A stretch of DNA of 59,487 bases from Candidatus Taylorbacteria bacterium RIFCSPHIGHO2_01_FULL_46_22b (GCA_001820875.1 MHRF01000007.1:59318-118804); one strand, 5' to 3'. Counted from the stretch's first letter, positions 1,612 to 58,061 are shown. Made by a program: numbers and translations. The notes: generated from the sequence alone by a model not told the origin.

Positions 1612-1798
1612 GGAGATGAGGGAAGAGGAATCGAGTCACGCATAATTTTCTGCTGAAAATTTGCGCGACCCCGTCTCGCGCCGCCGCGCTCCGACCGTTC
1701 GATTCCGCCCGCAAGCAAAGCAGCGACCAAAATATCTTGAGTACAGCGATTAGAGATTTGAAGTATCCTTGTGGTGTTTGCTTGCTCCATCTCCACCA
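1612..1798 (+). repeat. segment closed by an ssrA-type acceptor-like helix with encoded ACCA
   Basis: GGAGATG (1612-1618) can pair with CATCTCC (1788-1794), followed by ACCA. An internal GTTCGATTCC lies at 1697-1706 and a long-range stem CAAGCAAA/TTTGCTTG at 1712-1719/1777-1784. A terminator hairpin follows directly. No canonical tRNA or tmRNA fold could be derived. Confidence 0.3.
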
Positions 1799-1800
1799 AA

Positions 1801-1832
1801 CAAAAAAGGCACGCTTGCGCGTGCTCATTTTT
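1801..1832. terminator. bidirectional intrinsic terminator hairpin
   Basis: AAAAAAGGCACGC-TTGC-GCGTGCTCATTTTT, with an A-run upstream and a T-run downstream. It is flanked by the 12-nt inverted repeat CCATCTCCACCA (1787-1798) / TGGTGGAGATGG (1837-1848). Confidence 0.6.
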
Positions 1833-1865
1833 GAACTGGTGGAGATGGGCGGACGCTTGCGAGAC

Positions 1866-1983
1866 GCTTCGCTATCTCACACTTTGGAAACCCTCGGTTT
1901 TCCAACACTCGCCGACTCATTTCCTTCCTCCACGGGAAAGAATTCTCTTTCCCGACCCCTTTCTGTTCGATTCTCGCCATCTC
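1866..1983 (+). repeat. two-hairpin repeat motif, copy A (beside ssrA)
   Basis: Hairpins at 1884-1905 and 1933-1954, then the shared TTTCCCGACCCCTT (1948-1961). It ends in GTTCGATTCTCGCCATCTC (1965-1983), the reverse complement of the ssrA 3' end. Homologous to 6036-6153. Confidence 0.5.
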
Positions 1984-1997
1984 AAAATCTACAAATC

Positions 1998-2023
1998 AAA
2001 ACGCCCACTTTCGTGGGCGTTTT
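1998..2023. terminator. bidirectional intrinsic terminator downstream of ssrA
   Basis: AAAACGCCCAC-TTTC-GTGGGCGTTTT. It lies 9 nt past the ssrA 3' end on the minus strand. Confidence 0.7.
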
Positions 2024-2031
2024 GGAATTTT

Positions 2032-2425
2032 TGGAGATGGCGAGAATCGAACTCGCGTGCAAGAGAAAGAGGTGAATTGTTCTACAACATCTAGTTGGTC
2101 TGATTTTTTCGGCTCATGGGCTCAAGGCCAACAAAAAACACATGAGTATAGTTCTGTTCCCGCCGTGAGGCGATTCGGACGTGTTCCAGAACGGTAACAC
2201 ATCCTATCCCGAGATTATTATGCCCAAGCCAATGTATCGGAAGTCAATTGGTTGAACAGTGTGCGGTTTTTAAGCGTACACAAACGCAAAGTCCTTCGCA
2301 CCGAAGTACGGAGAAACTCGCGCTACTGCATTTTTGGCAGTTATAGTTTCCAGCCGTTTTAGGAGTTACTGGAGCTCCACGTTGCCCAAGACAACTCGTT
2401 TCTTTTGTCTATGCCGATCATCCCC
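2032..2425 (-). ncRNA. ssrA: tmRNA (SsrA), one-piece
   Basis: The minus-strand RNA starts GGGGATGATCGGCATAGAC and ends GCGAGTTCGATTCTCGCCATCTCCA. The 7-bp acceptor GGGGATG/CATCTCC carries the G3:U70 alanine identity pair, and the T-arm is GCGAG-TTCGATT-CTCGC. About 394 nt, adjacent to smpB. CCA is not encoded. Confidence 0.85.
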
Positions 2426-2496
2426 TTATGAAAAGCGACAAGCGATGAGCGAATAGCGATTAGGGTGACACCCCACTTTTCGCTGTTCGCTTTTCG

Positions 2497-2949
2497 CTAC
2501 TCACTATACTTTGTCAAAGTTCTCTGCATGTCGCGTTCGGCATCGCGTTTCTTCAGCGTTTCGCGCTTGTCGAATTTCTTCTTGCCTCGCGCAGTGGCTA
2601 TGGCCACTTTGATCCGCTTCCCCTTATTATACATCGAAACTGCCACAATTGTCAATCTCTTGGTACGCTCAATATCGCCAAGTTCAATAATTTCCTTTTT
2701 GGTAAGCAAGAGTTTTCGGTTTCTATCGGGGAAGTAGTGTTTGGGGGTGTTACTTGGCTGGTAGGGGGAGATGGTGGCGCCAAGCAGATAGGCCTCGCCA
2801 CCGCGTATAGTGACATGTGCACCATCGAGGTGGGCAAAACCGGAGCGGACAGCTCGAACTTCAAATCCAAGCAATTCAATACCCGCCTCGTAGGTATCGA
2901 GTAATTCATAGTTAAAACGGGCTTTTTTGTTGGTGGCGAGTTCTGCCAT
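2497..2949 (-). CDS. smpB: SsrA-binding protein SmpB
   Basis: 150 aa. KKARFNYEL...GIELLGFEV...LLLTKKEI and a basic C-terminal tail are typical of SmpB. Located next to ssrA. Confidence 0.95.
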   Translation of the reverse strand: MAELATNKKARFNYELLDTYEAGIELLGFEVRAVRSGFAHLDGAHVTIRGGEAYLLGATISPYQPSNTPKHYFPDRNRKLLLTKKEIIELGDIERTKRLTIVAVSMYNKGKRIKVAIATARGKKKFDKRETLKKRDAERDMQRTLTKYSE

Positions 2950-3644: not shown

Positions 3645-5528
3645 ATGGAAACTGGTAAACCCAAAAAACCTCGTCTATTGTTCAATATTTCGACTGCGAT
3701 TATTATTTTTTTCGCATTAACGCTTGGGTACTCTCTTTTGACTGAAAATCAAGCACCGGCCAACCAGATTTCATTGTCCGAATTGGTTACTGATATCAAT
3801 GCAGGTAAAGTCTCGGCACTTTCTATCAACGGTGATGCGGTTGAAGTTACCTATACCGGTGAGACACCAGAAGTGAAAGCTGTGCGTAAAGAAGATAGCG
3901 TCTCTATACTTGATTCGCTCAAAAATTTAGGTGTTGATTCGAAAAAACTTTCGGCGATTGGTGTGACAGTCAAGACGCCCTCGGGATTTTCATTCTGGTT
4001 TTTCAATCTCGCACCATTCATTCTTCCGCTCGTGTTCATTCTTGTGTTTATCTGGTTTCTCTCGCGCCAAGTACGCGGGGCGGGGATGCAAGCATTCTCC
4101 TTTGGACAGTCAAAGGCACGTATGATCGCGCCTGATGACAAGCGTCAGCGTGTAACTTTTAAAGATGTTGCAGGTGTCAAAGAAGCAAAAGAAGAATTGA
4201 GCGAGGTGGTTGATTTTCTAAAAAACCCGCGGAAATTTTTTGAAATCGGAGCGCGGATCCCGAAAGGTATGCTTTTGATGGGTGCTCCCGGAACCGGAAA
4301 GACGCTTTTGGCGCGCGCAGTGGCGGGTGAGGCAGGTGTGGCATTTTTCTCAATTTCTGGATCGGAGTTTGTCGAGATGTTTGTGGGTGTTGGTGCAAGT
4401 CGCGTGCGGGATCTTTTTAAACTTGCTAAGCACACGGCGCCAGCGATTATTTTCATTGATGAAATTGATGCGGTAGGGCGCGTGCGAGGAACCGGTGTTG
4501 GTGGAGGAAATGACGAACGTGAGCAGACACTCAACCAAATCTTGGTGGAGATGGATGGATTTGAACCAACCGAGAAGGTAATTGTGATGGCAGCGACGAA
4601 TCGTCCTGATGTGCTTGATCCGGCACTTTTGCGTCCCGGACGTTTTGATCGCCGCGTGATACTCGATTTGCCTGATCGCAATGATCGCGAGGAGATTTTG
4701 AAGTTGCATTCACGCAAGAAACCGTTTGCCGAAGATGTGAATTTGCGGGTGATAGCCGAGCGAACTCCCGGATTCTCTGGCGCCGATCTTTATTCTCTGA
4801 TGAATGAAGGAGCGATTCTTGCTGCACGCGAAAATCGCACCAAAGTGTCGCAATATGATTTGATTCGGGCGATTGAGAAAGTGATGTTGGGTCCTGAACG
4901 CAAGAGCCATTTGTTGTCGGTGAAAGAAAAAGAGATTACCGCGTATCACGAAGCAGGGCACGCACTAGTTGCCTCGGTACTCCCATTTGCCGATCCGGTG
5001 CATAAGATTTCAATTATTTCTCGCGGACGGGCGGGAGGATACACGCTTAAACTTCCGCTTGAAGATCGCCGTCTCCAGTCTCGCAGAGAATTTCTGGATG
5101 ATATTTCTGTTTCGCTTGCCGGTTTTGTTGCGGAGCAAATGATGTTTAATGACGTAACGACTGGTCCCTCAAATGATTTGCAGGTGGCAAGTGCGCTGAC
5201 GCGCGACATGGTGACTAAATATGGCATGTCGGAGAAACTCGGTCCGATTGCCTATGAAGCATCAGCAGGAGTGCTCTACGGTAAACCATTTGCAGAGCGT
5301 GAATATTCCGAACGGATAAGTGCCGAGATTGATTCAGAGGTGTCTCATATTGTCGAAGGTGCTCTGAAGAAAGCGACTGATGTTTTGACAAAGCATAAAA
5401 AAGCACTGCAAGCGATTGCGGGGCGATTGATTGAAGTGGAGACAATCGAGCGCGATGATTTTGAAAAACTATTGATTGCAAACGGTATTGTGCCGAAACG
5501 AAAAGCGGAGATTGAGCACAAGGTGTAG
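3645..5528 (+). CDS. ftsH: ATP-dependent zinc metalloprotease FtsH
   Basis: Walker A GAPGTGKT, Walker B IIFIDEID, the SRH region and the HEAGH zinc motif. Two N-terminal TM helices. The ATG at 3645 was chosen because TGTGTATAAT (extended -10, 3620-3629) lies inside the longer ORF. Confidence 0.95.
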
Positions 5529-5619
5529 TGTTGACGTTTGAAAAGCCTATGTGATAAGGTGTGGATTGGTTTTGTCGTATCTACACTCCAAACTCCAACC
5601 TCAACTCCAGTCAAAACCT

Positions 5620-5916
5620 ATGACGACCCTAACTGTTCCTTGTTCGCAATGGAAGAACCTTTTGGACGAAGCCGCGGATCTGACAGCTGCGGAAGCAGTG
5701 ATACAAAGAGCCCTGCTCGCATCTCGGGAGGAACTGCTCGAGTTCCTTCACGCATTGTTTCTCGAATACGTTGGCCCTGATGGGGCCGGTGGAGGGTGCA
5801 ATGGCACTCGCGACCGCATCCAACAGGTTGCTCGGGTGATTCACCTGAACGACGTTGACCTCGAAGGTCTCGGTCTCAATCCGCACGATTTTCGTGCGAC
5901 GATCTTCTCTCACTGA
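5620..5916 (+). CDS. hypothetical protein, G+C-rich orphan (98 aa)
   Basis: An ORF with helical-looking sequence, followed by a strong terminator. No clear RBS, and the start is uncertain (5551 GTG is the alternative). The line 5761-5820 counts 39/60 G+C. Confidence 0.4.
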   Translation: MTTLTVPCSQWKNLLDEAADLTAAEAVIQRALLASREELLEFLHALFLEYVGPDGAGGGCNGTRDRIQQVARVIHLNDVDLEGLGLNPHDFRATIFSH

Positions 5917-5937
5917 CTTCGAGTTCTTCTCGTGCGC

Positions 5938-5974
5938 GCCGCGTGCCCTTTCAGGGCCGCGGCGTTTGTTTTTA
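5938..5974 (+). terminator. intrinsic terminator
   Basis: CGCCGCGTGCCCT-TTC-AGGGCCGCGGCG followed by TTTGTTTTT. Confidence 0.7.
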
Positions 5975-6035
5975 TGTATCGTCACGAGTCACAAAGTATT
6001 TTGTCCGCTGTCTTGGAGTCTCACTGCTCGCTCGA

Positions 6036-6153
6036 TTAACTCGCTCCGCTTTGAGAACCCACGGTTCTCAACGTCCCTCGAAGACTCGGGACTGCTCTCC
6101 GACACGGGAAACTCCCGTTTCCCGACCCCTTCCCATCGTTCGAGTCCAAGAGG
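6036..6153 (+). repeat. two-hairpin repeat motif, copy B (beside tRNA-Ile)
   Basis: Hairpins at 6051-6071 and 6105-6124, then TTTCCCGACCCCTT (6118-6131). It ends in GTTCGAGTCCAAGAGG (6138-6153), the reverse complement of the tRNA-Ile T-arm. Homologous to 1866-1983. Confidence 0.5.
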
Positions 6154-6190
6154 ACTCACTCGCTTCGCTCATTCCGCCCTCTTGGACTCG
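6138..6190. repeat. hairpin formed by an inverted and a direct partial copy of the tRNA-Ile 3' end
   Basis: CGAGTCCAAGAGG (6141-6153) pairs with CCTCTTGGACTCG (6178-6190). The stretch 6174-6190, CCGCCCTCTTGGACTCG, is identical to 6339-6355 inside the tRNA gene. Confidence 0.6.
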
Positions 6191-6274
6191 CCCGCGACTC
6201 AAAATTCGCTACCGCTCATTTTGGTCTGGGCACCAGCTCGCTTGTTTTTTCTATCGAAAAAACATAGCTCCGCT

Positions 6275-6310
6275 GTTCGAGTCCAGACGCAACTGAAGAA
6301 GTTCAGTTGC
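6275..6310. repeat. degenerate inverted T-arm copy plus hairpin just downstream of tRNA-Ile
   Basis: GTTCGAGTCCAGA (6275-6287), then the hairpin GCAACTGAA-GAAG-TTCAGTTGC (6289-6310). Confidence 0.5.
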
Positions 6311-6336
6311 TTAGGTCTGATACTCGCCGACTCGTA

Positions 6337-6410
6337 TCCGCCCTCTTGGACTCGAACCAAGGACCTACGAGGTATAAGCTCGTTGCTCTAACCAGCTGAG
6401 CTAAGGGCGG
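6337..6410 (-). tRNA. tRNA-Ile, anticodon UAU
   Basis: Folded by hand: acceptor CCGCCCT/AGGGCGG, D-arm GCTC-AGCTGGTTA-GAGC, anticodon arm ACGAG-CTTATAC-CTCGT (anticodon TAT), T-arm CTTGG-TTCGAGT-CCAAG, discriminator A. CCA is not encoded. Confidence 0.8.
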
Positions 6411-6519
6411 GTGTGTAGAAAAGAGTATAGCAGTAAATTTTTTAAAGCAAACTTTTTGTCTTTTGTTAAGTTGCTTAATCAAGCTGGCGGGAGTAGTCTT
6501 CTTGGTTAGGAGGTGAATT

Positions 6520-6888
6520 ATGAATCCCAAAGTGTTCTATAGGTATTGCAGGGAACTGGTTATGCTCCCTCAATCTCGATGGGTAGTCCGATTCGGTCCA
6601 AAGCTTGAGATCCGTCTCATGCCGACTCTCGGTACCGTCCCGGAGTTGTTTGATCCGGTACTCCCACTCTTGGCGGTTGCGATTGATGTTAAAGGTGAGA
6701 GAGAAATATACAAGGATGATCCGTGGATTGCCGCAGACGCTCTTGAACTTCCTTCCACTTTTGCTTCGCGGTTGATCATTGCTTCTACGCAAGCGAAAGG
6801 TCTTTCAAGTCCGATTTGTGAGGAGAGGGAGAATTTGATTTCTGCGCTTTGTGTCAGAACGAATCGAGTGCCACGGTGTGCGAATTAG
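6520..6888 (+). CDS. hypothetical protein (122 aa)
   Basis: The ATG is preceded by AGGAGGTG, and a terminator follows at 6911-6935. No family recognised. Confidence 0.55.
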   Translation: MNPKVFYRYCRELVMLPQSRWVVRFGPKLEIRLMPTLGTVPELFDPVLPLLAVAIDVKGEREIYKDDPWIAADALELPSTFASRLIIASTQAKGLSSPICEERENLISALCVRTNRVPRCAN

Positions 6889-6910
6889 CCACAAGGTGTT
6901 TGTGCGTTTT

Positions 6911-6935
6911 GGGCGCCCTGCAATGCAGGGCGCCC
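6911..6935. terminator. bidirectional terminator hairpin between convergent genes
   Basis: GGGCGCCCTG-CAATG-CAGGGCGCCC, with TTTT upstream and ATTCC downstream. Confidence 0.65.
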
Positions 6936-6949
6936 ATTCCTTTCTCTAA

Positions 6950-9109
6950 CTATTCGAAATGAATCGCATCTTGCCGTTCGAGTCTCTCTTTCAAAAGGGA
7001 ATGTTTTGTGAGCATCGGATCTGTATCTATAATCGCTCGCGCTTCGGTTCGTGCAGCTTCCACCATTTTGATATTTTGCAAGGCTTCCATTGCAACGTCA
7101 GATACTCCCCATTGTTTTCGTCCGTATAGTTCACCGGTGCCACGAAACTCAAGATCGCGCTCTGCAAGCTCGAATCCGTTTTTTGCCGTTTGTAGTGCTT
7201 TGAGGCGAGCAAGCGCAGTTTTTGTCTTGCTTTCGGTGAATACGTAACAGTACGCCTGATCATTTGATCGGATGATGCGCCCGCGCAATTGGTGAAGTTG
7301 GGCAAGTCCGAATCGTTCTGCACCCTCGATAATCATGACGGTTGCATTCGGGACGTTTACGCCGACTTCAACCACTGAAGTTGAAACGAGAATTTTTTTC
7401 CGTCCGTCTTTAAACATATCCATCACTTTTTCTTTGTCGTCATTTTTCATTTTGCTGTGGAGTATGTCAATTTCATATTCGGGAAATACTTCTTTTTTCA
7501 GACGGGTTGCTTCAGCGATGGCGGATTTTGCCTGCAGTGCAAGTTCTTTTGTCGGATCGGGTTCGTCAATACGAGGGCAGATCACAAATGCCTGACGTCC
7601 TAGAGCAAGTTGTTTTCGCACTTTTTCGTACACTTCATTTCGATTTTCGGGATCGATGATTTCGGTGATAACCGGTTTTCGCCCTACAGGCATTTCATCC
7701 AATACTGATAAATCGAGATCGCCGTAAATGGTGAGTGCGAGTGTGCGCGGAATTGGAGTTGCGGTCATGGAAAGGAGGTGTGGTTTCAACTCTTCTTTGG
7801 TGGTGAGTTTTTGTCTCTGCAGAGTGCCAAACCGATGTTGTTCATCGATAATCACAAATGCGAGGTGTTTGAACTTCACACTTTTTTGAATCAGGGCATG
7901 TGTGCCGACAAGAATTGGAATCTCTCCATTACCCACCCATTTAAGCAGTTGTGTGCGCGATATGTCGGTTGATCCGTGCGGATTTACTTTTGAGGGGAAT
8001 TTCCGACAACCACTTCCGGTAATGAGGCCAACATTGACCCCAAGATGCGCGAAATATCCCACAAATGATTCAAACTGTTGTTTCGCAAGAACTTCGGTTG
8101 GGACCATGTAAGCAACTTGTAGATGCCCAAAATCTTGTCCCGAAGGGCGACTGGTGATGACGGCATATGCGGTTGTGGCGGCCACTGCCGTTTTTCCCGA
8201 TCCAACATCTCCTTCAAGGAGTCGTGCCATCGGGTGTCCGCGTTTGAAATCAGAAAGAATTGTTTGTATAGACGAGTGTTGTCCTTTGGTTGGAGAGAAT
8301 GGAAAACGAGATATGAATGATTGCAGAGATTCTTTTGATGGCTCGATTACGAATGCCTTTTCGCGCTCGAATTCTTTCCGCGCGCGCTGTTTCTCAAGTT
8401 GTATGAAAAATATTTCTTCAAATGCGAATCGTTTTCTTGCCGCCTGCGCATCCTTTTCGTTTTTTGGGGTATGAATCCAGATAAGCGCCGTGCGGAGAGT
8501 GGGGAGGTGATAGCGCGCTAGTATTTCTTCAGGAATATCTTCAGTGAGCCTGTCGAGTATTCCTGCTTGGAGAACTTTTTGTACGGCGTGATAGAGCCAA
8601 TTTGACGTGATCCCTCTCGTCTCGGGATATACCGGATGGAGCGCGTGGAGTTCGTGCTCGGCGCCGAACAAGTTTTCTGAAGTTGAAGGAATCCGTTCAA
8701 CTCGCTCGGCTTTTGGGTTTGAGAAATATTTTACTCCTTTGCGTTCCGCAACATTTCCTTCAATGCGCACGAGTGTTCCTTCGCCGAGCATTTTTGCCAG
8801 ATACGGCTGGTGAAACCAGATTATTTTTATCGAGCCCGTGTCATCGGTCAGGATTCCTTCCGCCATAGGGATTCGTTTGTGAAATGCTTTGAGGGTTTTC
8901 AGTCCGTGGATTCTGCCGTAGACGACGGCGCTTGAACCGGTTTGAAGCGAGGCTATGGTTTTTGTCTCCGAATTTTTTTCGTAGCGGGAAGGAAAGTGAT
9001 GCAAGAGGTCGTCAGCGGTTTGTATACCGAGCTTCGTGAGAGCCTTTTTCTGCGCGGGGCGGATTTGGAGCAGTGTATCGAGGGGAGTCGGGGAGTGCAT
9101 AACAGACAT
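6950..9109 (-). CDS. recG: ATP-dependent DNA helicase RecG
   Basis: An OB/wedge-type N-terminus. Helicase motifs GDVGSGKT and DEQHRFG, plus RGRIIRS in the C-terminal domain. The start was set at MSVMHSP (9109); the ORF extends to 9172. Confidence 0.9.
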   Translation of the reverse strand: MSVMHSPTPLDTLLQIRPAQKKALTKLGIQTADDLLHHFPSRYEKNSETKTIASLQTGSSAVVYGRIHGLKTLKAFHKRIPMAEGILTDDTGSIKIIWFHQPYLAKMLGEGTLVRIEGNVAERKGVKYFSNPKAERVERIPSTSENLFGAEHELHALHPVYPETRGITSNWLYHAVQKVLQAGILDRLTEDIPEEILARYHLPTLRTALIWIHTPKNEKDAQAARKRFAFEEIFFIQLEKQRARKEFEREKAFVIEPSKESLQSFISRFPFSPTKGQHSSIQTILSDFKRGHPMARLLEGDVGSGKTAVAATTAYAVITSRPSGQDFGHLQVAYMVPTEVLAKQQFESFVGYFAHLGVNVGLITGSGCRKFPSKVNPHGSTDISRTQLLKWVGNGEIPILVGTHALIQKSVKFKHLAFVIIDEQHRFGTLQRQKLTTKEELKPHLLSMTATPIPRTLALTIYGDLDLSVLDEMPVGRKPVITEIIDPENRNEVYEKVRKQLALGRQAFVICPRIDEPDPTKELALQAKSAIAEATRLKKEVFPEYEIDILHSKMKNDDKEKVMDMFKDGRKKILVSTSVVEVGVNVPNATVMIIEGAERFGLAQLHQLRGRIIRSNDQAYCYVFTESKTKTALARLKALQTAKNGFELAERDLEFRGTGELYGRKQWGVSDVAMEALQNIKMVEAARTEARAIIDTDPMLTKHSLLKERLERQDAIHFE

Positions 9110-12619: not shown

Positions 12620-12682
12620 ACCGATAAAGGTAACCTTTCTTACGAAGAATATCAATTACGCAATACCAGATTTTCTTGGCAG

Positions 12683-12811
12683 GGAGAGTGGAAGTTTCGA
12701 AGCTTACAGCTTCAGTATCCGTTTCTGATTTTTTATTCGCCTTCGGCTCTAAAAAATCTAGAGAACGGCTTCGAATCCCACACGCAGGCATAACATGCCT
12801 GCTCCTCTCCG
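12683..12811 (+). pseudogene. degenerate tRNA-Ser-like element in inverted orientation to the tRNA-Ser gene
   Basis: CTTCGAATCCCAC (12769-12781), a 22-nt hairpin insert ACGCAGGCATAACATGCCTGCT, then CCTCTCCG (12804-12811). Compare GTTCGAATCCCAC-CCTCTCCG at the 3' end of tRNA-Ser (30741-30827). The 5' GGAGAG (12683-12688) can pair with CTCTCC. The hairpin GCCGC-TTGC-GCGGC follows. Confidence 0.4.
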
Positions 12812-12998
12812 TTAACAAAATTGGCCGCTTGCGCGGCTCAATTTTCGTAAAAACGGGCTACTCGGGTATGGTACCCAGAGATTTAAGCCTTGTAATGGTA
12901 TTCTAGCGCATTTTCTGCTGAGACGCCGAGGTACGTGGGTCGGGGGGTCTAGTTTCCAGAAAGTTACAAAAGTGACACAGGAACGGGACACTCATGTG

Positions 12999-13721
12999 TC
13001 ACTTTTTTATCCCATCAAACAGAGAACTAAAATCGAGACCTAGTCGGAGCATTTCGCTACGAAGATGGAGCAGTCCTTGCCACGCTTTCTTGTGGCACAC
13101 CCGGAATGGCTTCCCTGAACCGCACAAACAGGACCGTTCCGCGCTTGGTTTTCGTAGTTGCTTATGGTACTCCTTCCAATTCAGATCCTTCCGCATCGAC
13201 GGTAAAACCTCCGCAATGTCCTCTACCGTTTGAGGAGTAGTATCTTCTGCATAAAATTCAAGTAACCCCATGCTGCCATGTGAATAGTCGCCCCATGGCC
13301 AAATGCGATGGTGTTCATAGTGAACGAGTCCATACAAATACGGTACCGCCAGTTCCTCAACAAATACAAATAGGTCTGAACTCGGCGGAAACTTTCGCTT
13401 TTCAATTTGTTTTACACATACACACACAGTGCCATCCTTATTTCGATGAAGCGTTCGCAAATCAGTTAGCCCTAACTTTTCGGCGATGACTTCAGTGCGT
13501 CCTCCGATTTCATACAGTGCTGGCACACGACTCGAGTTAGGATTTGTTGCCGTGATTCGTACTTGAAAACTATCCTTTAGCGGCTTGCCATCATAAACCG
13601 CATCCATCTCCAGAGTGCCCTCTACCGTGCCAGACCCTGTTCTTTTAAGTCCTGGATATCGTGTTTTTACTGCCGATATTTCTTCATCGGAGAATGCCGT
13701 GGACATGGCTACTGTGCCCAA
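12999..13721 (-). CDS. SEC-C motif protein, N-terminal domain unknown (possible E2/UBC-like)
   Basis: C-terminal CLCGSGKPFRVCH is a SEC-C metal-binding motif. The N-terminal beta-rich region is followed by LHRNKDGTVCVCV. The gene overlaps the upstream TIR gene by 13 nt. Confidence 0.7.
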   Translation of the reverse strand: MGTVAMSTAFSDEEISAVKTRYPGLKRTGSGTVEGTLEMDAVYDGKPLKDSFQVRITATNPNSSRVPALYEIGGRTEVIAEKLGLTDLRTLHRNKDGTVCVCVKQIEKRKFPPSSDLFVFVEELAVPYLYGLVHYEHHRIWPWGDYSHGSMGLLEFYAEDTTPQTVEDIAEVLPSMRKDLNWKEYHKQLRKPSAERSCLCGSGKPFRVCHKKAWQGLLHLRSEMLRLGLDFSSLFDGIKK

Positions 13722-14317
13722 GGACCGGATGGATTATTGATAACAGTAGGACCGGTTGTCGCATAAGACTTTTGTGACAACGGCGTTGCTGTGGAATGGC
13801 GGTCAAGAGTACCCGCCTTAAGCGTGATCTCGCCCTTGTATTGTGTTCGTGCACTCGCCGCTTCATCTGCCCATGTACCTAGGTTGTTGCGGCCATCGTT
13901 GTTTACCCAATCGTAGGTTTTGCAGACCGAGGAAAGCGGCTGTCCGTTTGCTAGGTAGATATTATCTAGCGGATTGATACCTTGCGCATCAGTTTTGTTC
14001 TCTTGGTCTTTGACGTTATGAATGTAGAGGCCAATAATTGCATTGCCGCGCTCCCAGCTGGTGCGGATTTCATAATCGACCCATGGGCGCTGTGATGTCT
14101 CTGCGCCAATCAGCACAACCGTAACCGAGGTGCCTTCAAGTTGTTCCTTAATCCAGTTTTCTATTGCCTTATCGCCCTTGCGTTTAATTTCCTCCCATGC
14201 CGCAGCGTCAATGAATCCGTACTCGTCCTCGTTTGGAAGAAGGTCACTGTTGCGTACCTGGCCAGCTCGCCAGGCATCGCGCTCGTAATGGAAACTGAAG
14301 AATATTTTTCGAGTCAT
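13709..14317 (-). CDS. TIR-like protein of the ThsB / DUF1863 type
   Basis: KIFFSFHYERD...VTVVLIG..T..RPWVDYEI...ERGNAIIG..IHN and the C-terminal YDWVNNDG all match the Thoeris ThsB-type TIR family. The conserved Glu lies in WVDYEI. Confidence 0.85.
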   Translation of the reverse strand: MTRKIFFSFHYERDAWRAGQVRNSDLLPNEDEYGFIDAAAWEEIKRKGDKAIENWIKEQLEGTSVTVVLIGAETSQRPWVDYEIRTSWERGNAIIGLYIHNVKDQENKTDAQGINPLDNIYLANGQPLSSVCKTYDWVNNDGRNNLGTWADEAASARTQYKGEITLKAGTLDRHSTATPLSQKSYATTGPTVINNPSGPWAQ

Positions 14318-14321
14318 AGTT

Positions 14322-14714
14322 TTAGATAAATATAAATATAATAATGTGCGCTACTGCCAACCCTCCGTAGAACAGCCGCATCGTTTCCGAGAATGCACAT
14401 CCACCGACAGTTACCTCCTTCTCAAATGGCTTCGTGTTCATAGAGAAATCTGTGTTGTCACCTTCCGATGTGCTTACGCGCTCGTAGAGTTTGATGAATA
14501 AACGTTCTCGGGAAAGATAGTAGCTATCAAGTCGCCAAAACAGGACGAGGACTACCAATGAGATTAGGAGGTATAACGGATCCACCTCCTTGAAGGTCAA
14601 TGCGAACAGAGCGCCGACAATGGTGACCGCCCAGCCCTTCAGTAGAAACGAGTTGCCGGCCATCCGGTTGATGGTCGACTGAATGAATTCGAGGTGTTTG
14701 AGTTTTGCTTCCAT
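14322..14714 (-). CDS. small 3-TM membrane protein, candidate effector (SLATT-like topology)
   Basis: 130 aa. An amphipathic N-helix, two adjacent TM helices (WAVTIVGALFALTF and LYLLISLVVLVLFW), a helical stretch YYLSRERLFIKLYERV, then a C-terminal TM. Gaps of 4 nt to both neighbouring genes. Confidence 0.6.
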   Translation of the reverse strand: MEAKLKHLEFIQSTINRMAGNSFLLKGWAVTIVGALFALTFKEVDPLYLLISLVVLVLFWRLDSYYLSRERLFIKLYERVSTSEGDNTDFSMNTKPFEKEVTVGGCAFSETMRLFYGGLAVAHIIIFIFI

Positions 14715-14718
14715 ATGT

Positions 14719-15354
14719 TTAGTACAGGTCAGGCGGCAGAACTCCCATCACCACACCTTGAATAATGCAGTTATCTGTTAATACGATCGGCGTGTGCGGA
14801 TCGGACGACTTCGGGCGAAGAATCACCACGCCGTTTTTTCGTTCCAGTATCTTTACCGTCGCTTCGTCGTTGATGAGCGCGACAACGATCTGGCCGTCGT
14901 CTGCGGACCCCTGCTGACGGACGAGCACGATACTTCCATCATCAATACTCACACCGCTAACCCTCGCTTGGTTCATCGACGTACCGACTACACGGAGCAA
15001 AAAGTACGTAGACCCGGGACGTGCAAGCGCGGTTGAGACCGATATGATTGCTTCGACATTTTCCTCCGCAAGCATAGGTGCACCGGCGGCGATGCCGCCG
15101 ACAAGTGGCACCTCAACGGTGGAGACCGAGGAGTTGGATTCGAGACTCGGACTAGTGAGTCGAATTCTTCGTCCTGCGCGCCGAATCAGTCCGGCCTTCT
15201 CAAGACGCTCAAGAGAAAGGACGGCAGAGCGCGGGGACGATCGCTCGGTGACCTCGTTTATCTCCCGCAGGGTAGGCGCATCAAGACCGTGAACCAGGCG
15301 GTTCCGGATGAGGGTATAGACCTTCTTATCGCTCTCGCTGAGGTGATCTAGCAT
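14719..15354 (-). CDS. LexA-like / cI-like S24 repressor (second paralogue)
   Basis: A wHTH N-terminus. Ala-Gly site GIAAGAP, Ser motif VGTSM and Lys in ATVKILERK. The start was set at MLDHLSE (15354), directly behind a TTGCAA-17-TATACT promoter. The ORF extension to 15750 was rejected. Confidence 0.8.
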   Translation of the reverse strand: MLDHLSESDKKVYTLIRNRLVHGLDAPTLREINEVTERSSPRSAVLSLERLEKAGLIRRAGRRIRLTSPSLESNSSVSTVEVPLVGGIAAGAPMLAEENVEAIISVSTALARPGSTYFLLRVVGTSMNQARVSGVSIDDGSIVLVRQQGSADDGQIVVALINDEATVKILERKNGVVILRPKSSDPHTPIVLTDNCIIQGVVMGVLPPDLY

Positions 15355-15414
15355 AGGTATAAACAAGTATACACCCAAGTGGACTTTTTTGCAAGGGCTT
15401 GCTAGACTATAGAT
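15355..15414. promoter_or_regulatory. divergent promoter/operator region
   Basis: On the minus strand: TTGCAA (15389-15394), 17 nt, TATACT (15367-15372). The palindrome GTATA-N6-TATAC (15357-15372) overlaps that -10 box. On the plus strand: GTGGAC, 18 nt, TAGACT (15403-15408), 6 nt before the ATG at 15415. Confidence 0.5.
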
Positions 15415-15768
15415 ATGGCAAAACAGCGCATTTACCTCACTGACATCATGTGCCATGTCCGAAATCACCACCAAACCGGCAGTTTTGCCAAGGCCACAAA
15501 AAAGGGGCGCATGTATTCGCCTCTGCCTGAAAATTACGCAAAGACAGATGTTGACCCCGTAAACCACACCTTCAAATTTCGGTTTCAGCTCCCTTCTGAT
15601 CTGGTCGACCTCATTAAGCGTGGCGAAGCCGAGTTGGTCATGCCGAAAGATGGCCTGTTTATTTTTGCCGGACCAGACACGCAGGAAATGGTTAAGAAAA
15701 TGGGTCGAAAGGAACGCCGTCAACTTATCCACCGCAGCCGTACTTGGCACGCTGATAAGAAAGAGTAA
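15415..15768 (+). CDS. hypothetical protein divergent from the repressor (cro-position gene)
   Basis: A 117-aa ORF filling an otherwise empty 0.5-kb gap. Its position mirrors early genes of temperate phages. No HTH was recognised. Confidence 0.4.
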   Translation: MAKQRIYLTDIMCHVRNHHQTGSFAKATKKGRMYSPLPENYAKTDVDPVNHTFKFRFQLPSDLVDLIKRGEAELVMPKDGLFIFAGPDTQEMVKKMGRKERRQLIHRSRTWHADKKE

Positions 15769-15920
15769 AATGTAAGTATAACTGAATATTACAGGTGGTG
15801 CCTCGCACTCGTTGCCACGCCCACTTCGTAGAGAAAGCCTGATGAATCAGCATTGCTGGTTCCCCGAGTCTTCTTAGCGAAGTGGGCTTTCTCGTTATTA
15901 GCAAATTAATAACGCGAAAT

Positions 15921-17192
15921 ATGAGCAAAGACATAAACATTGTGTACGTGCCGGTCAAAGATCTTAAACCGGCAACTTACAACCCTCGCAAAATCTCCGA
16001 CGAAGCGCTCGCACAACTCAAAGAGAGCATCACGAGATTCAAAATGGTCGATCCGATCATCGTGAATTCAGCGCCAAAACGAGATGGCGTTGTGGTCGGC
16101 GGCCACCAGCGGCTCCGCGCCGCTAAAGAGCTGGGACATAAAACCGTACCAGTCGTGTACGTGAACATTCCAAGCATCGAGAAAGAAAAGGAATTAAATC
16201 TCCGCCTCAATCGTAATACCGGTGAGTGGGATTTCTCCAAGCTAAAGGCCTTCGACCTAGAGCTGTTGCTCGACATCGGATTCGACGACAGCGACCTCAC
16301 CAACATCTGGGATGAGAATCTCGAAACTGAGGACGACGGTTTCGACGTCGAAAAGGAACTCGCCAAAATCACGAAGCCGAAAACGAAACTCGGCGACCTC
16401 TATCAGCTCGGAGCGCATCGCCTCATCTGCGGTGACTCCACCGATCCAACGGTGCTTAAAAAACTCATCGGCAAGGATGCGGTGTCGATGATATACAGCG
16501 ACCCCGTGTACAACATCGGTATCGACTACAACAAAGGCATCGGTGGCAAGAAGTCATACGGCGGCACTGTGAATGACAAGCGCACGGACACTGAGTACAA
16601 AACATTTCTCCGCACAACATTGGTTAACGCGCTTGCCGTCTCCAAGCCCGACACGCATGTGTATTACTGGTGCGACGAATCGTACATCTGGCTCATCCAA
16701 GAGCTGTACCGCGAACTCGGTATAGAGAATAAACGCGTATGCATGTGGATCAAGAACGGCCACAATCCGACTCCGGGTGTCGCGTTCAACAAGTGCTACG
16801 AGCCCTGTGTGTATGGCGTGCGCGGAAGACCCTATCTCACCAAAGGCATCGACAATCTCAACGAGGTGTTCAACAAGGAACTCACGACTGGCAACCGGCT
16901 CATCGATGACATTCTCGACCTTCTTAACATCTGGCTCGTAAAGCGGATGGCAGGACAGGACTACCAGCACGCCACGGCAAAACCGCCCACTCTCCACGAA
17001 AAAGCCATCCGGCGTTGCACTTGTCCGAGTGATCTCATTCTCGATTCGTTCGGTGGATCGGGCAGCACCTTAATAGCAGCAGAACAACTGAAGCGACGCT
17101 CCGCCCTAGTCGAATTGGAGCCGATATTCTGCGACCTCATCATCAAGCGATATGAAGCACTCACTCACACAAAAGCCAAAAAGCTCAATTAA
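15921..17192 (+). CDS. ParB-like nuclease domain fused to a DNA methyltransferase (beta-class N6A/N4C)
   Basis: ParB-type N-terminus (VPVKDLKPATYNPR...GGHQRLRAAKELG). Methyltransferase motif IV-like SDPVYN and motif I FGGSGST. The start was set at MSKDINIVYV. Confidence 0.85.
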   Translation: MSKDINIVYVPVKDLKPATYNPRKISDEALAQLKESITRFKMVDPIIVNSAPKRDGVVVGGHQRLRAAKELGHKTVPVVYVNIPSIEKEKELNLRLNRNTGEWDFSKLKAFDLELLLDIGFDDSDLTNIWDENLETEDDGFDVEKELAKITKPKTKLGDLYQLGAHRLICGDSTDPTVLKKLIGKDAVSMIYSDPVYNIGIDYNKGIGGKKSYGGTVNDKRTDTEYKTFLRTTLVNALAVSKPDTHVYYWCDESYIWLIQELYRELGIENKRVCMWIKNGHNPTPGVAFNKCYEPCVYGVRGRPYLTKGIDNLNEVFNKELTTGNRLIDDILDLLNIWLVKRMAGQDYQHATAKPPTLHEKAIRRCTCPSDLILDSFGGSGSTLIAAEQLKRRSALVELEPIFCDLIIKRYEALTHTKAKKLN

Positions 17193-17925
17193 GGTCGGCG
17201 ATGTCTTCCGCATTGGCGATCACATACTCGGTTGCGGCGATGCCCGCGATGCGGACTTCGTGAATCACCTTGTAGGCAAAGCAAAGATCGCCCTCATTCT
17301 GAGTGACCCGCCGTATGGGGTGGCGTTCGTCGAGAGCAAGGAGTCGTTTATGAACATCAAAGTGCAAAAAAAGATTCTCAACGACGGGATCGTCTCAGAA
17401 TCACAGTACGCGCAATTCACCAAGGACTGGCTCGTGCCGATCATGCCACATCTCGCAAGCAAGAACAGCGTTTACATCTTCAACTCTGACAAAATGCTTT
17501 TCGCTCTGCGCGAGGGCATGGAGCGCTCCGGCATTCGCTTTTCACAGCTACTTGTATGGATCAAAAACCACGCCATCGTCGGACGTAAGGATTATCTCCC
17601 CCAACACGAACTGGTGGCATACGGCTGGCACGGCACGCACGAGTTCAAAAAAGCAAAAGATAAATCCATCCTCATCTACCCAAAACCCAACAAGAGCCCG
17701 CTGCACCCGACTCAAAAACCAGTGGGATTACTGCGTCGTCTTGTGCTCAACAGCTCCGACATTAAAAGCGTGGTGTACGACTGTTTCGCAGGGTCGGGGT
17801 CGACCGGAATCGCGGCGGAGCAATGCAAACGTCGGAGCATTCTCATCGAGCGGGACGAGGAATACTGCCAGACCATTATAAACCGCTTCGAGCGTGAGTT
17901 CGGGTTTAAAGCAACAAAGGTATGA
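17152..17925 (+). CDS. DNA methyltransferase (beta-class N6A/N4C)
   Basis: SDPPYG (motif IV) comes before FAGSGSTGIAAE (motif I). It overlaps the previous gene by 41 nt and is paralogous to that gene's methyltransferase half. Confidence 0.85.
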   Translation: MKHSLTQKPKSSIKVGDVFRIGDHILGCGDARDADFVNHLVGKAKIALILSDPPYGVAFVESKESFMNIKVQKKILNDGIVSESQYAQFTKDWLVPIMPHLASKNSVYIFNSDKMLFALREGMERSGIRFSQLLVWIKNHAIVGRKDYLPQHELVAYGWHGTHEFKKAKDKSILIYPKPNKSPLHPTQKPVGLLRRLVLNSSDIKSVVYDCFAGSGSTGIAAEQCKRRSILIERDEEYCQTIINRFEREFGFKATKV

Positions 17926-19807: not shown

Positions 19808-19839
19808 TTGAGATGAACTTTCTTTCCAGCACATAATGT

Positions 19840-21018: not shown

Positions 21019-21149
21019 GCCATTTCCCGGTTTTGGCGCGTTTTCACTCTTCCGGCTGGATAAGTGGCGCAATCCTCTCATAAAGGAATTTGTTGCTTTA
21101 TATGCCCGACGAGTCAGGCTGTGATTTGTTTTTGTGTTCATAAAATAAT

Positions 21150-23834: not shown

Positions 23835-23875
23835 GATATGAATTATAGCTGAATTTCACTTTTATTTCAGCAGAT

Positions 23876-24058: not shown

Positions 24059-24134
24059 ACTTATAGTATATACCCTCCGAATTAATACTGATAGATAAGA
24101 AAGTGGTTTTGGGTGGATAGAACTCAAATCTATC

Positions 24135-25359: not shown

Positions 25360-25406
25360 ACAAATATAAAGATTAAACTAATAATTAATTATATATCCTT
25401 TTGAAA

Positions 25407-25874: not shown

Positions 25875-25941
25875 GTTTTCATTTTCTCATAATCCAGCAT
25901 CATTGGATAGTATTACGGATTACCTTATTCACCCTCTACGG

Positions 25942-30630: not shown

Positions 30631-30640
30631 GTAGCAAAAG

Positions 30641-51301: not shown

Positions 51302-51372
51302 AGCGGGGTAGAGTAACAGTAATTCGTCAGGCTCATAACCTGAAGATGCCCGTGCAATTCGGGCCCCCGCAA
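51302..51372 (+). tRNA. initiator-like tRNA-Met (CAU) with atypical D- and T-loops
   Basis: AGCGGGG...CCCCGCA-A resembles E. coli tRNA-fMet. Features: 1:72 mismatch (A:A), A11:U24, anticodon loop CTCATAA. The D-loop AACAGTA lacks GG, and the T-loop is TGCAATT instead of TTCRANY. Confidence 0.6.
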
Positions 51373-51444
51373 CAAGCATGTACCGTTGTTGAATCCATTG
51401 GACGTATAGAGTACAATAGGAGTGTATTCGTTTAATTTACTTAT

Positions 51445-51774: not shown

Positions 51775-51847
51775 GACGGAGTAGCTCAGTTGGTAGAGCA
51801 CGGGACTCATAAGCCCGGGGTCGTGGGTTCAATCCCCACCTCCGTCA
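51775..51847 (+). tRNA. tRNA with CAU anticodon (elongator Met type; Ile2 not excluded)
   Basis: Folded by hand: acceptor GACGGAG/CTCCGTC with G1:C72 paired, D-arm GCTC-AGTTGGTA-GAGC, anticodon loop CTCATAA, T-arm GTGGG-TTCAATC-CCCAC, discriminator A. Confidence 0.85.
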
Positions 51848-51885
51848 CACGAAGCGAGTAGGAAGGAAGCTTTGCCCTTCGGCAA
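51826..51885 (+). repeat. 60-nt direct repeat, copy 1 (tRNA 3' end plus 38 nt of trailer)
   Basis: GGTTCAATCCCCACCTCCGTCACACGAAGCGAGTAGGAAGGAAGCTTTGCCCTTCGGCAA, identical to 51971-52030. Confidence 0.9.
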
Positions 51886-51970
51886 AGCGCGGAGGGGATT
51901 GAAAAGCTTCTCCCATATTTTTGAGGCATTCTGATGACGAAAAAATGGGAAAGCTGTACTGAACCGGTAC

Positions 51971-52030
51971 GGTTCAATCCCCACCTCCGTCACACGAAGC
52001 GAGTAGGAAGGAAGCTTTGCCCTTCGGCAA
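51971..52030 (+). repeat. 60-nt direct repeat, copy 2
   Basis: Identical to 51826-51885 and 145 nt downstream of it. No 5' tRNA half is present. Confidence 0.9.
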
Positions 52031-56956: not shown

Positions 56957-57011
56957 TAGGGGAGCGGGTTTGGTTGATGAGATCCAGAAAATCTGGTACA
57001 GTCTTTTTACT

Positions 57012-57085
57012 GCGGTCGTAGCTCAGCTGGTTAGAGCGCTCCCCTGTCACGGGAGAGGTCGCCGGTTCAAATCCGGTCGACCGCG
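57012..57085 (+). tRNA. tRNA-Asp, anticodon GUC
   Basis: Folded by hand: acceptor GCGGTCG/CGACCGC, anticodon loop CTGTCAC, T-arm GCCGG-TTCAAAT-CCGGT, discriminator G. Confidence 0.9.
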
Positions 57086-57120
57086 CAAGCAAATCGCCGA
57101 AAGGCGATTTTTGCTTGCGC
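57083..57120 (+). terminator. long terminator hairpin overlapping the tRNA-Asp 3' end (repeat copy 1)
   Basis: GCGCAAGCAAATCGCC-GAAA-GGCGATTTTTGCTTGCGC. Its first 33 nt recur at 58012-58044. Confidence 0.65.
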
Positions 57121-57163
57121 GGTTGGAGCGAGCAAACTGCTTTGCTCGCGTCCGGATTTGAAC
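57118..57163. repeat. inverted copy of the tRNA-Asp T-arm/acceptor, split by an inserted hairpin
   Basis: CGCGGT, then the insert TGGAGCGAGCAAACTGCTTTGCTCGCGT, then CCGGATTTGAAC. The reverse complement of the tRNA 3' end is CGCGGTCGACCGGATTTGAAC. Confidence 0.6.
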
Positions 57164-57260
57164 AAGCGGAGACATGTCGCTTGCGACAGGCGAGCTCGGG
57201 GAGGAAGTTCTTAGTAAAATTGAGTTTGCAGAACGAAAATTTTACTTAGAAACTTGACCC

Positions 57261-57279
57261 TCAAATCCGGTCGACCGCG
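57261..57279 (+). repeat. 19-nt direct copy of the tRNA-Asp 3' end
   Basis: TCAAATCCGGTCGACCGCG, identical to 57067-57085. Confidence 0.85.
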
Positions 57280-57349
57280 TCAAATAACCGTAGATTGGTT
57301 CAAGACACACACATGGTGACGACATACGTGTCTTGCTATAATCAAAGCG

Positions 57350-57916
57350 ATGAAAAAGGAGATGCCGGTCGCAATCATTATTTATGGAATGGTTGCAGTG
57401 GGTAAACTCACTGTCGCAAAAGCTCTTCAAAAGGAGCTTGGATACAAACTTACGCACAATCATCTCGTAAGCGATTTGGTCTGGAGCATCTTTGACCGAG
57501 GAACTCTAGAAGGGAACCGTCTTATTGAGAGACTTCGCTATGAGTTATACGAGGAGGCAATCAATCAAGGAGTGAGTGTAATAATCACACATTGCTATTC
57601 TCATGACTACGTCTCTCCTACAGGACTCTCCGACCCAGATTATTTGAAAACGCTTGAAGAAAAGTTAGAAGCTTCCGGTGCAAAGACACTATTTATCCAT
57701 TTGCAGGCCGACAATCAAGTGCTCCTCGAACGAGTGCAGGGAGAATCAAGACATGAGTACAGGAAACTCACAGATGTGGCAAAGATGTCAGAGTACCTAG
57801 AGGATAAAAAACTTGATGTCAGGACGTCAGCGCCAGTCAAGAACAATTTAGTGATAGATAATACGAACATGTCAGTGGAAGATGTAGTCAAGCTAATCCG
57901 AACAGCAGTAATGTAG
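57350..57916 (+). CDS. P-loop kinase-like ATPase (AAA_33-type)
   Basis: Walker A YGMVAVGKLT near the N-terminus. 188 aa, with the size and layout of small nucleotide or antibiotic kinases. Confidence 0.65.
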   Translation: MKKEMPVAIIIYGMVAVGKLTVAKALQKELGYKLTHNHLVSDLVWSIFDRGTLEGNRLIERLRYELYEEAINQGVSVIITHCYSHDYVSPTGLSDPDYLKTLEEKLEASGAKTLFIHLQADNQVLLERVQGESRHEYRKLTDVAKMSEYLEDKKLDVRTSAPVKNNLVIDNTNMSVEDVVKLIRTAVM

Positions 57917-58011
57917 TTATGAGTTCGGTGGTGTGATATTGGGAATATATATATGCACTGTCCTTCAGTCAGTGTCTTTCTTATCTTAGTTCCAACAGCG
58001 TCCACTACGGT

Positions 58012-58061
58012 GCGCAAGCAAATCGCCGAAAGGCGATTTTTGCTCGCGTTCGGCTTTGAAC
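58012..58061 (+). repeat. second copy of the tRNA-Asp trailer hairpin plus degenerate inverted T-arm
   Basis: GCGCAAGCAAATCGCCGAAAGGCGATTTTTGCT, then CGCGTTCGGCTTTGAAC. Compare GCGTCCGGATTTGAAC at 57148-57163. Confidence 0.7.

Follow-up and report, generated by a model that had tools for sequence, protein, structure and literature searches.

Inverted and direct copies of gene tails flank conserved, folded cores behind tRNA and tmRNA genes of a Taylorbacteria genome

Results

The window analysed here, a stretch of 59,487 nucleotides (nt) from Candidatus Taylorbacteria bacterium RIFCSPHIGHO2_01_FULL_46_22b, covers C7:59318-118804 of a 921-kb genome in 13 contigs (45% GC; completeness estimate 98.7%). 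Its RNA genes are ssrA, which encodes the transfer-messenger RNA (tmRNA), and five tRNA genes (ARAGORN, Rfam). A first-pass annotation of the window had noticed that partial inverted and direct copies of a gene's own 3' end accompany ssrA and four of the five tRNA genes. Every coordinate that it listed held on re-inspection, and the initiator-like tRNA-Met (51302-51373) indeed has no copy. We found that the copies are not free-standing but flank conserved cores, within cassettes of 100-250 nt that contain no open reading frame (ORF). The tail of the live gene, from T54 in the T-loop to the discriminator, is referred to here as X1, its inverted copy as X', and its direct copy as X2.

The whole genome holds 47 tRNA genes and the tmRNA gene (ARAGORN). 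When the trailers of all 48 genes were laid out in tRNA orientation, the cassettes showed the order X1, hairpin, X', conserved core, short hairpin with a YGTAA-type loop, and X2. Counted from the gene, positions run from about +30 to +80 for the inverted copy and from about +100 to +165 for the direct one. The trailer hairpin that follows X1 is often a terminator, with an A-tract, a GC stem and a T-tract; a terminator-like hairpin stands ahead of X' in 18 of 43 sampled loci, and in the other 25 there is none. X' always ends in ...TCGAA(C), a sharp border within the T-loop. In many cases a small GC hairpin interrupts it, at the boundary of its acceptor part (X'a) and its T-stem part (X'b) or one step further in. 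The possibility that X'b is a direct copy of the 5' strand of the T-stem was rejected because non-palindromic T-loops (Leu TTCAAGT, which becomes ACTTGAA) and X'a are clear reverse complements.

The cores are 60-110 nt long and fall into at least three families in this genome. F1, which we modelled most carefully, follows the pattern GCCCGATTGAG-hairpin-CCAATYGGGkTACTGA-nnnTGTAAnnn. The patterns of the two families modelled less carefully are RGCCGGAG-hairpin-CGAGnCGGGGTCG-long hairpin-GACC (F2/F2b) and GGGGTCGGGAAA...TTTCCCG together with a hairpin of the TTGGAAAACC...GGTTTCCAA type (F3). In the window, tRNA-Met and the module that belongs to tRNA-Ser carry F1 and tRNA-Asp carries F2, while tRNA-Ile is followed by F2b and then F3, and tmRNA by F3 and then F2. 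All five window cassettes fold with X':X2 closing a multi-helix junction, at z-scores from -2.1 to -5.7.

The tmRNA gene (2029-2425, minus strand; RF00023, 94.9 bits) has no encoded CCA, and its X1, GTTCGATTCTCGCCATCTCCA, lies at 2032-2052. Behind it on the same strand come a terminator-like hairpin (1998-2023) and X' (GAGATGGCGAGAATCGAAC, 1965-1983), which is complementary at 19 of 19 positions to the 3' end at 2034-2052, that is, to the T-loop, the 3' strand of the T-stem and the 3' strand of the acceptor stem. The F3 core, with the GGGGTCGGGAAA...TTTCCCG hairpin and others, spans 1854-1964 (z = -2.1), and it is followed by X2 (TCCGCCCATCTCCACCA, 1837-1853), a displaced older 3' end that encodes CCA and has the T-stem CCGCC. 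G002 and G004, both members of the same genus, share this T-stem, whereas the live tmRNA T-stem differs from it and is internally compensated. An older cassette (1608-1832) lies further downstream, again on the minus strand, with a terminator (1802-1832), X'a (TGGTGGAGATGG, 1787-1798), X'b (GGGCGGAATCGAAC, 1697-1710), an F2 core (1635-1696) and a degenerate third direct copy, X3 (1608-1634). The second palindrome of the first-pass annotation, 1787-1798/1837-1848, is thus the displaced older tmRNA end with its own terminator and inverted copy. A LexA/S24-peptidase-like gene (1042-1608, plus strand) ends 1 nt inside this oldest remnant, and another (14719-15750, minus strand) lies in the island described below.

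The tRNA-Ile(UAU) gene (6337-6410, minus strand; X1 6337-6356) is also followed by two cassettes on its own strand. The newest (6173-6310) consists of a hairpin (6289-6310), X'b (6275-6287), an F2b core (6191-6274) and an X2 identical at 18 of 18 positions (6173-6190), and folds with z = -5.7. The older one (6002-6153) has X' at 6138-6153, an F3 core at 6021-6137 and a degenerate third direct copy, X3, at 6002-6020; its core finds about 3 to 10 matches, at 75-91% identity, in each genome of the same genus. The UAU anticodon of this tRNA is encoded in the genome, and the gene is also present in G002 and G004. Relative to the conserved genes that flank it (with an ftsH-like gene end on one side), the tRNA-Ile gene with its cassettes (window 5500-6950) is turned round when compared with these two genomes (L056 and L057); the change of orientation is a local inversion beside inverted repeats.

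Behind the elongator-type tRNA-Met(CAU) gene (51775-51848, plus strand; X1 51826-51847) lies a single cassette (51849-52030, plus strand) with a hairpin (51869-51888), X' (CGGAGGGGATTGAA, 51890-51903) and an F1-type core (51904-51974; 58.7 bits with the F1 covariance model; z = -4.9). Its X2 and a duplicated piece of trailer (51971-52030) are identical to 51826-51885 over 60 of 60 nt. The tRNA-Asp(GUC) gene (57012-57086, plus strand; X1 57065-57085) is followed on the same strand by a cassette at 57086-57279, made up of a terminator-like hairpin (57086-57117), X'a (CGCGGT, 57118-57123), a small hairpin (57126-57149), X'b (57151-57163), an F2 core (57164-57260) and an X2 identical at 19 of 19 positions (57261-57279; z = -3.8). 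The next stretch on the plus strand, 57280-57305, is the native flank of the ancestral tRNA-Asp 3' end (TCAAATAACCGTAGATTGG...), and its equivalent in G004 (CCAATAACCGTATCTAGG...) lies behind the oldest displaced end there. A remnant of an older unit (58011-58061, plus strand) consists of TGCG, a copy of the trailer hairpin and a degenerate inverted copy (CGCGTTCGGCTTTGAAC), and stands behind a cargo ORF (57350-57916).

That ORF, which is AAA-kinase-like, belongs to an insert of another kind (57280-58010), located at the 3' end of tRNA-Asp, which starts with (C/T)CAAATAACCGTAGAT... and ends with CTTATCTTAGTTCCAACAGCGTCCACTACGG. In G004 the same end sequences enclose another ORF, in which a Nudix-like motif was seen by eye, and G002 also has the end motif (L111).

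For tRNA-Ser(GCU) (30740-30827, minus strand), the first-pass annotation had reported an inverted copy 18 kb away. The copy is there, at 12770-12781, but it is not a lone fragment. It is part of a complete module at 12677-12845 (minus strand; detected with nhmmer; 81 bits with the covariance model; z = -4.6), composed of a terminator (12817-12845), X'a (12804-12811), a small hairpin (12783-12803), X'b (12770-12781), an F1 core (12700-12769) and a degenerate X2 that ends in CCA (12677-12699). The stretch of about 18 kb between module and gene (12846-30739) looks like an island or a composite that has integrated at tRNA-Ser, with a mini-cassette module at its far end and with putative borders. 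It contains a ThsB-TIR protein, a LexA/S24-like repressor, two DNA methylases, and an HTH protein with a terminase large subunit (Pfam), together with a P-type ATPase, a glycosyltransferase, a DUF5655 protein, a nuclease-like DUF2726 protein, a LOOT RNA and a large serine recombinase (27998-29467; PF00239). The LOOT RNA (RF03000, 79.5 bits; 27862-27985, minus strand) lies 12 nt from the start of the recombinase gene, which is divergent from it (plus strand). No empty site for this island was found.

We then asked how the pattern stands against chance in the whole genome. The final 25 nt of each gene were compared with both strands of the 300 nt downstream, and the 99th percentile of shuffled trailers was taken as the cut-off. 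A copy of the gene's own tail exceeded it in 28 of the 48 genes (21 direct, 24 inverted, 17 both). When each gene's own upstream 300 nt served as a control, three genes scored with a direct and one with an inverted copy, and permuted pairs of gene and trailer exceeded the cut-off in 5.0% (direct) and 3.6% (inverted) of cases. Own and permuted scores differed strongly (Mann-Whitney p = 5e-13 for direct and 4e-11 for inverted copies), and neither the first 25 nt nor the middle part of the tRNAs is copied in this way. These results demonstrate that the pattern is genome-wide, limited to the part from the T-loop to the 3' end, and specific for each gene's own sequence. The scan that the first-pass annotation had proposed therefore speaks for it: the copies are not confined to the loci of the window, and upstream, shuffled and permuted controls match at only about 1-5%. 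Its further claim, that copies so specific to a gene are no generic dispersed repeat, holds for the copies and fails for what they flank, because the conserved cores between them are dispersed. One gene stands apart. tRNA-Pro(GGG) (C13:18643-18714) has a perfect 25-nt copy of its own 5' end upstream, of a quality matched by no other gene, and a near-complete copy from the T-arm to the 3' end starting 19 nt downstream.

X' resembles the live tRNA more closely than X2 does (89% against 74% in ungapped comparison); by a gapped measure, which is too permissive to be conclusive (permuted controls 0.82 and 0.76), X' matched at 90% or more at 39 loci and X2 at 27. The cores of Leu(UAA) and Leu(UAG) are one base apart, yet each X' fits its own tRNA. 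This pair, the tandem units and the co-varying copies described below show that X' is renewed at each site and does not drift slowly; re-insertion, gene conversion or selection could each be behind the renewal.

With a profile of 12 F1 cores, 19 copies were found in this genome. In a sample of 151 genomes of the order, the F1 covariance model found the core in 91, with at least 29 copies in the richest genome (31 candidates were scored per genome), whereas among about 190 genomes sampled from the rest of the phylum a single one was positive. Among 60 sampled F1 loci of relatives, 49 had a same-strand tRNA upstream, which ended 35-234 nt (median 69) before the core, and X' and X2 at these loci match the adjoining upstream tRNA. 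Identical tandem units 140-157 nt apart occur in several genomes. One unit (L063, G111:C7) is chimeric: its X' fits the upstream tRNA-Pro, and the direct copy behind its F1 core resembles a tRNA-Arg tail, which suggests recombination between F1 cores of different loci.

We propose that the F1 core folds into the short hairpin and two stacked helices that contain a GA-rich internal loop. Within this genome 94.5% of the cells of the alignment are paired and 19 of 23 pairs show compensatory changes. With 74 copies from about 40 genomes, 97.2% are paired and all 23 pairs are compensatory; none of 500 shuffles was as good, and controls with a slid structure reached 33-55%. Compensatory change indicates that a single strand folds, since a purely double-stranded protein-binding site would not need compensation. 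The wobble pairs, counted on the tRNA-sense strand, are 47 G-U against 10 A-C, a ratio toward which the model-based alignment leans somewhat, and they indicate that it is the tRNA-sense strand that folds. Convergent decoy transcripts, which the first-pass annotation had offered as one explanation, find no support here. Unpaired bases at the junction (GAA, TTGAG, CGAA, GGTACTGA and the YGTAA loop) are conserved across the order. A scan of the window with Rfam at gathering thresholds, ribozyme models included, matched only tmRNA, the tRNAs and LOOT, and an E-value scan of the tRNA-Met cassette matched nothing relevant. A hammerhead or another ribozyme (twister, pistol, hatchet, HDV-like) was rejected on that ground and because the order of strands in F1 is, by eye, unlike the CUGAUGA / GAAA core.

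Orthologous sites in relatives were found filled, empty or filled more than once. There is one tRNA-Asp cassette here and there are two in G004, while the site is empty, with a plain terminator, in G010 and G012 of the same family. In both this genome and G004, (C/T)CA and a shared native flank (AATAACCGTA...; AATAACCGTAGAT...) come after the last direct copy. CCA also stands directly behind the X2 of Gln(CUG) and of Leu(UAG), and the flank at Gln(CUG) equals the trailer that is native to its paralogue, Gln(UUG). Seven of 24 relatives have a cassette behind tmRNA, and there X' follows each genome's own T-arm (CCGGG, GCGG, GGGGG, GTGGG and others). The tRNA-Ile(UAU) gene of G002 has a related F2b cassette, in which its own T-loop base (A instead of G) is repeated in X1, X' and X2. 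The copies thus co-vary with their own gene at tmRNA and at this tRNA-Ile, as the first-pass annotation had suggested checking. In G004 the entire tRNA-Ile is new, and a stump of the old 5' half is left upstream. Downstream of tmRNA in several relatives (L009, L014, L018, L020, L022) lies a different element, with inverted repeats TGCTTCGC...GCAGTGCA or ...GAAGCAGTG, followed by a small ORF that starts with MYYVYILKS... (GIY-YIG-like by eye).

Cassettes appear to go along with the loss of encoded CCA. None of the nine genes that encode CCA has a cassette within 300 nt, as compared with 28 of the 39 that do not (Fisher p = 1e-4 with curated classes; p = 0.004 with a crude regular expression). 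The association is no rule, as the older tmRNA cassette had CCA and its X'a complements it. About 39 of the 48 tRNA-type genes lack an encoded CCA, and an ORF that resembles a CCA-adding enzyme by eye follows tRNA-Arg(UCG) on C10.

A few modules lie elsewhere. The Pfam-confirmed rplL gene has a coding end (...GAGGKVTLK*) that is directly followed by its own reverse complement, then by an F3-like core, an F1 core and finally an old end, AGGKVALK*. On C1, two tRNA-Arg(UCU) F1 cassettes, a 284-amino-acid (aa) ORF and half an F1 core occur in succession; the ORF (C1:103180-104034, minus strand) had no match in Pfam. The tRNA-Arg(UCU) gene itself is at the end of C10, so that the ends of C1 and C10 probably join. 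The genome encodes three large serine recombinases, at least two of them beside tRNA genes, two tyrosine recombinases and two RAYT-like Y1 proteins. At C4:67670-67975 (minus strand) lies a tRNA-like gene that ARAGORN missed, with its 5' and 3' parts about 230 nt apart (possibly by a group I intron); it meets, 3' end to 3' end, a gene for a 591-aa large serine recombinase.

Discussion

We consider it fairly probable that the copies are the target-derived flanks of stacked, mostly gene-free insertion cassettes, which lie downstream of tRNA genes, of the tmRNA gene and of some conserved protein genes and displace the old gene ends. X1 would be a working replacement of the gene's 3' portion (T-loop to discriminator), and X2 would be the gene's previous 3' end, moved downstream along with whatever came after it. 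If new cassettes enter beside the live gene, arrays read from youngest to oldest and X2 decays with age. Scars of tRNA-targeted integration, the first of the explanations offered in the first-pass annotation, fit best with the stacking, the displaced 3' ends, the empty, single and double sites, and the module at the far end of the island.

Several observations weigh against insertion. Both strands of the T-stem are changed between the live tmRNA and the displaced copy, and this, like the wholly new tRNA-Ile of G004, fits poorly with a simple crossover in the T-loop. Across the 151 genomes of the order, F1 is independent both of large serine recombinases (PF07508; both, F1 only, enzyme only, neither: 53/38/41/19; odds ratio 0.65, p = 0.23) and of Y1_Tnp (54/37/35/25; odds ratio 1.04, p = 1), and 12 genomes that bear F1, some with 15-18 copies, have neither enzyme. 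A single scan of metagenome contigs for a strain with an empty tRNA-Met site found none. Moreover, tandem copies can be explained by slippage between X1 and X2 without transposition, identical F1 cores within a genome could stem from gene conversion instead of movement, and the structural conservation and sense orientation suit an RNA useful to the host equally well.

How might such cassettes be inserted? The route that we prefer, while regarding it as somewhat doubtful, is that the element moves as, or acts as, a folded single strand. X' would pair with X and rebuild a double-stranded image of the target above the three-way-junction core, as in CTXphi attP(+) and integron attC sites, and a host-encoded enzyme would then recombine the folded strand with the tRNA gene. 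Integration of such a fold would leave the footprint X1, body, X', loop, X2, as observed, and because it would be irreversible it would also explain the stacking. This route would need no gene on the element and would fit the covariation and the strand bias. A serine recombinase as the mobilising enzyme was rejected because it does not co-occur with F1, and a Y1/RAYT protein, although present in the genome, does not co-occur with F1 either. No element-specific enzyme emerges, and what is left is a function common to all hosts or a reason of selection that has nothing to do with movement. Alternatively, insertion could be mediated by RecA after natural transformation, with the tRNA body as the left arm and X2 as a 20-nt right arm. 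RecA would account for the preference for the most conserved genes and for the lack of a dedicated enzyme, and the replaced tmRNA T-stem and the new tRNA-Ile of G004 fit it better than a simple T-loop crossover; it would leave X' and the core unexplained.

Taking the folded strand a step further, one may picture a mobile element free of protein genes whose own nucleic acid sets its landing site. The X':X helix, above the conserved three-way junction, would serve as the image of the target or, as RNA, as a mimic of the acceptor/T-arm stack. A housekeeping recombinase or even a tRNA-processing enzyme of the host would insert the element between T-loop and 3' end of any tRNA that it matches, and E. 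coli RtT would be a relic of the same class. We put this forward tentatively, as a possibility that we doubt rather than expect.

Rather than insertions, the cassettes might be functional parts of tRNA transcription units, spread by selection, in which X' controls maturation, termination or quality, or in which X'-core-X2 is released as a mimic of the top half of tRNA, like the E. coli rtT RNA. Much of the structural evidence would suit such a role: the cassettes invariably lie on the tRNA-sense strand, a short way behind the gene, the stems covary with a G-U bias on that strand and conserved unpaired junction bases, there is no link to a recombinase, and E. coli RtT is transcribed and processed, as Bosl and Kersten reportedly found in 1991. 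The second explanation of the first-pass annotation, pairing of the trailer with the 3' half of the tRNA in the precursor, keeps its footing to this extent: X' is complementary to the live tRNA, which it matches better than X2 does, and 25 of the 43 sampled loci have no terminator-like hairpin before X'. The association with genes that lack CCA is in line with a host function, and so is the outcome of a whole-genome search for RNase Z with TIGR02651, which did not detect the enzyme; the best match, at 18 bits, was a membrane-anchored protein with a metallo-beta-lactamase fold (C7:17066-18004). Nevertheless, we think a host function unlikely. Cassettes are patchy at orthologous genes (tmRNA in 7 of 24 genomes; tRNA-Asp with none, one or two copies), old copies are stacked and decaying, and the module is also present downstream of a ribosomal protein gene and at the far end of the 18-kb island. 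In addition, the 18 loci with a terminator-like hairpin ahead of X' argue against it, X':X1 pairing would unfold the tRNA, and no Rfam family or ribozyme was matched.

It is quite improbable, in our estimation, that the cassettes are the attL/attR leftovers of classical integrase-borne islands or prophages, made by large serine recombinases and left after loss of cargo and integrase. Integration at tRNA genes classically leaves direct repeats that span T-loop and 3' end, a signature that Williams is said to have described in 2002, and the genome does offer the pieces: three large serine recombinases, of which at least two adjoin tRNA genes, an island that ends in a complete F1 module, and a cargo insert that ends in half an F1 core. 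Yet 38 of the 91 genomes with F1 have no serine recombinase, including genomes with 19 to at least 29 copies and with identical tandem pairs. Compensatory changes in stems are unexpected for double-stranded att sites, and deletion scars would neither keep a three-way junction across an order nor yield an inverted copy that matches the target. Very improbable is an origin without any element, by template switching at terminator hairpins (palindrome extension) and unequal crossing-over: although X1, the hairpin and X' often make up an unbroken perfect palindrome with the terminator loop at its centre (tRNA-Asp, tmRNA), direct-inverted-direct is a known result of two template switches, and tandem units can grow by slippage, it leaves unexplained the cores common to different tRNA genes and to 91 genomes, their covariation and their fixed position between X' and X2, so that in our view the dispersed core refutes it as a general explanation, while X' in individual units could still have arisen in this way.

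If the cassettes are mobile, they would represent a minimal gene-less element that colonises the most conserved genes of a streamlined genome harmlessly, since it supplies a spare end for the gene and, in many cases, a terminator. As dispersed repeats they can drive rearrangements, as at the tRNA-Ile inversion and at the one locus whose flanks come from two tRNAs. For annotation, they explain many of the 'tRNA fragments' and hairpin-rich spacers in genomes of the candidate phyla radiation (CPR).

Comparison with known systems

We found no account of such cassettes in the open full-text literature, which is not proof that none exists. REPIN/RAYT systems (reportedly described by Bertels and Rainey in 2011 for REPINs) and miniature inverted-repeat transposable elements (MITEs) are likewise short, gene-free, hairpin-forming repeats that occur in tens of copies just behind genes. 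Unlike the cassettes, however, they do not copy their target in both orientations, and the co-occurrence with a cognate Y1 gene that marks REPINs was absent in the 151 genomes.

Islands and prophages that target tRNA genes, together with their gene-less remnants (cis-mobilizable elements, CIMEs), share with the cassettes a replacement 3' part, a direct repeat, a displaced old end, arrays and empty sites. As in these elements, a direct repeat brackets the insert and leaves the gene intact, and relatives have an empty site. An integrase of their own is absent from the cassettes, which have no ORF; a serine recombinase is found only in the 18-kb island. The cassettes also differ in that they measure 100-250 nt, include an inverted copy of the target and contain a covarying folded core.

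The attP(+) site of CTXphi and of integrative mobile elements exploiting Xer (IMEX), which is used by the host XerCD (for CTXphi, reportedly the subject of work by Val in 2005), and the integron attC site, reportedly the subject of work by Bouvier in the same year, resemble the cassettes in having two inverted copies of the site, a loop of 60-110 nt, stems conserved in structure, conserved unpaired bases and no recombinase of their own. The cassettes, too, have inverted copies in a stem and conserve structure over sequence. Their target is a tRNA gene, whereas that of CTXphi and attC is dif or attI. The likeness is one of possible workings and not of membership.

The closest match in layout is RtT of E. 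coli MG1655 (tyrT-tyrV), whose repeats Rossi is said to have described in 1981. There, tandem 178-bp units, analysed with the same script as the cassettes, show the order direct copy, inverted copy, core and direct copy, and they are stacked, as here. An inverted segment of the T-arm and the acceptor 3' strand (GGGGAAGGATGAGAAGCTTCGA), which is imperfect (score 14.5 in gapped local alignment with the reverse complement of the tRNA tail), lies about 60 nt after the tRNA end and is followed by a GC-rich hairpin region and then by a direct copy that is perfect all the way from T-loop to CCA (AATCCTTCCCCCACCACCA). The cassettes share this layout: each unit behind a tRNA combines an inverted segment resembling the T-arm, a core of hairpins and a direct copy of the tRNA 3' end. 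There is no sequence similarity, and the RtT covariance model (RF00391) had no match in the window. RtT is at one E. coli locus and its X' is imperfect, whereas the cassettes are at 28 of 48 genes, with several core families, and X' is perfect in most young ones. To our knowledge, the function and origin of RtT are unexplained and its layout has been a puzzle since the early 1980s. The hundreds of covarying copies described here form a comparative data set that makes the question of the RtT layout testable.

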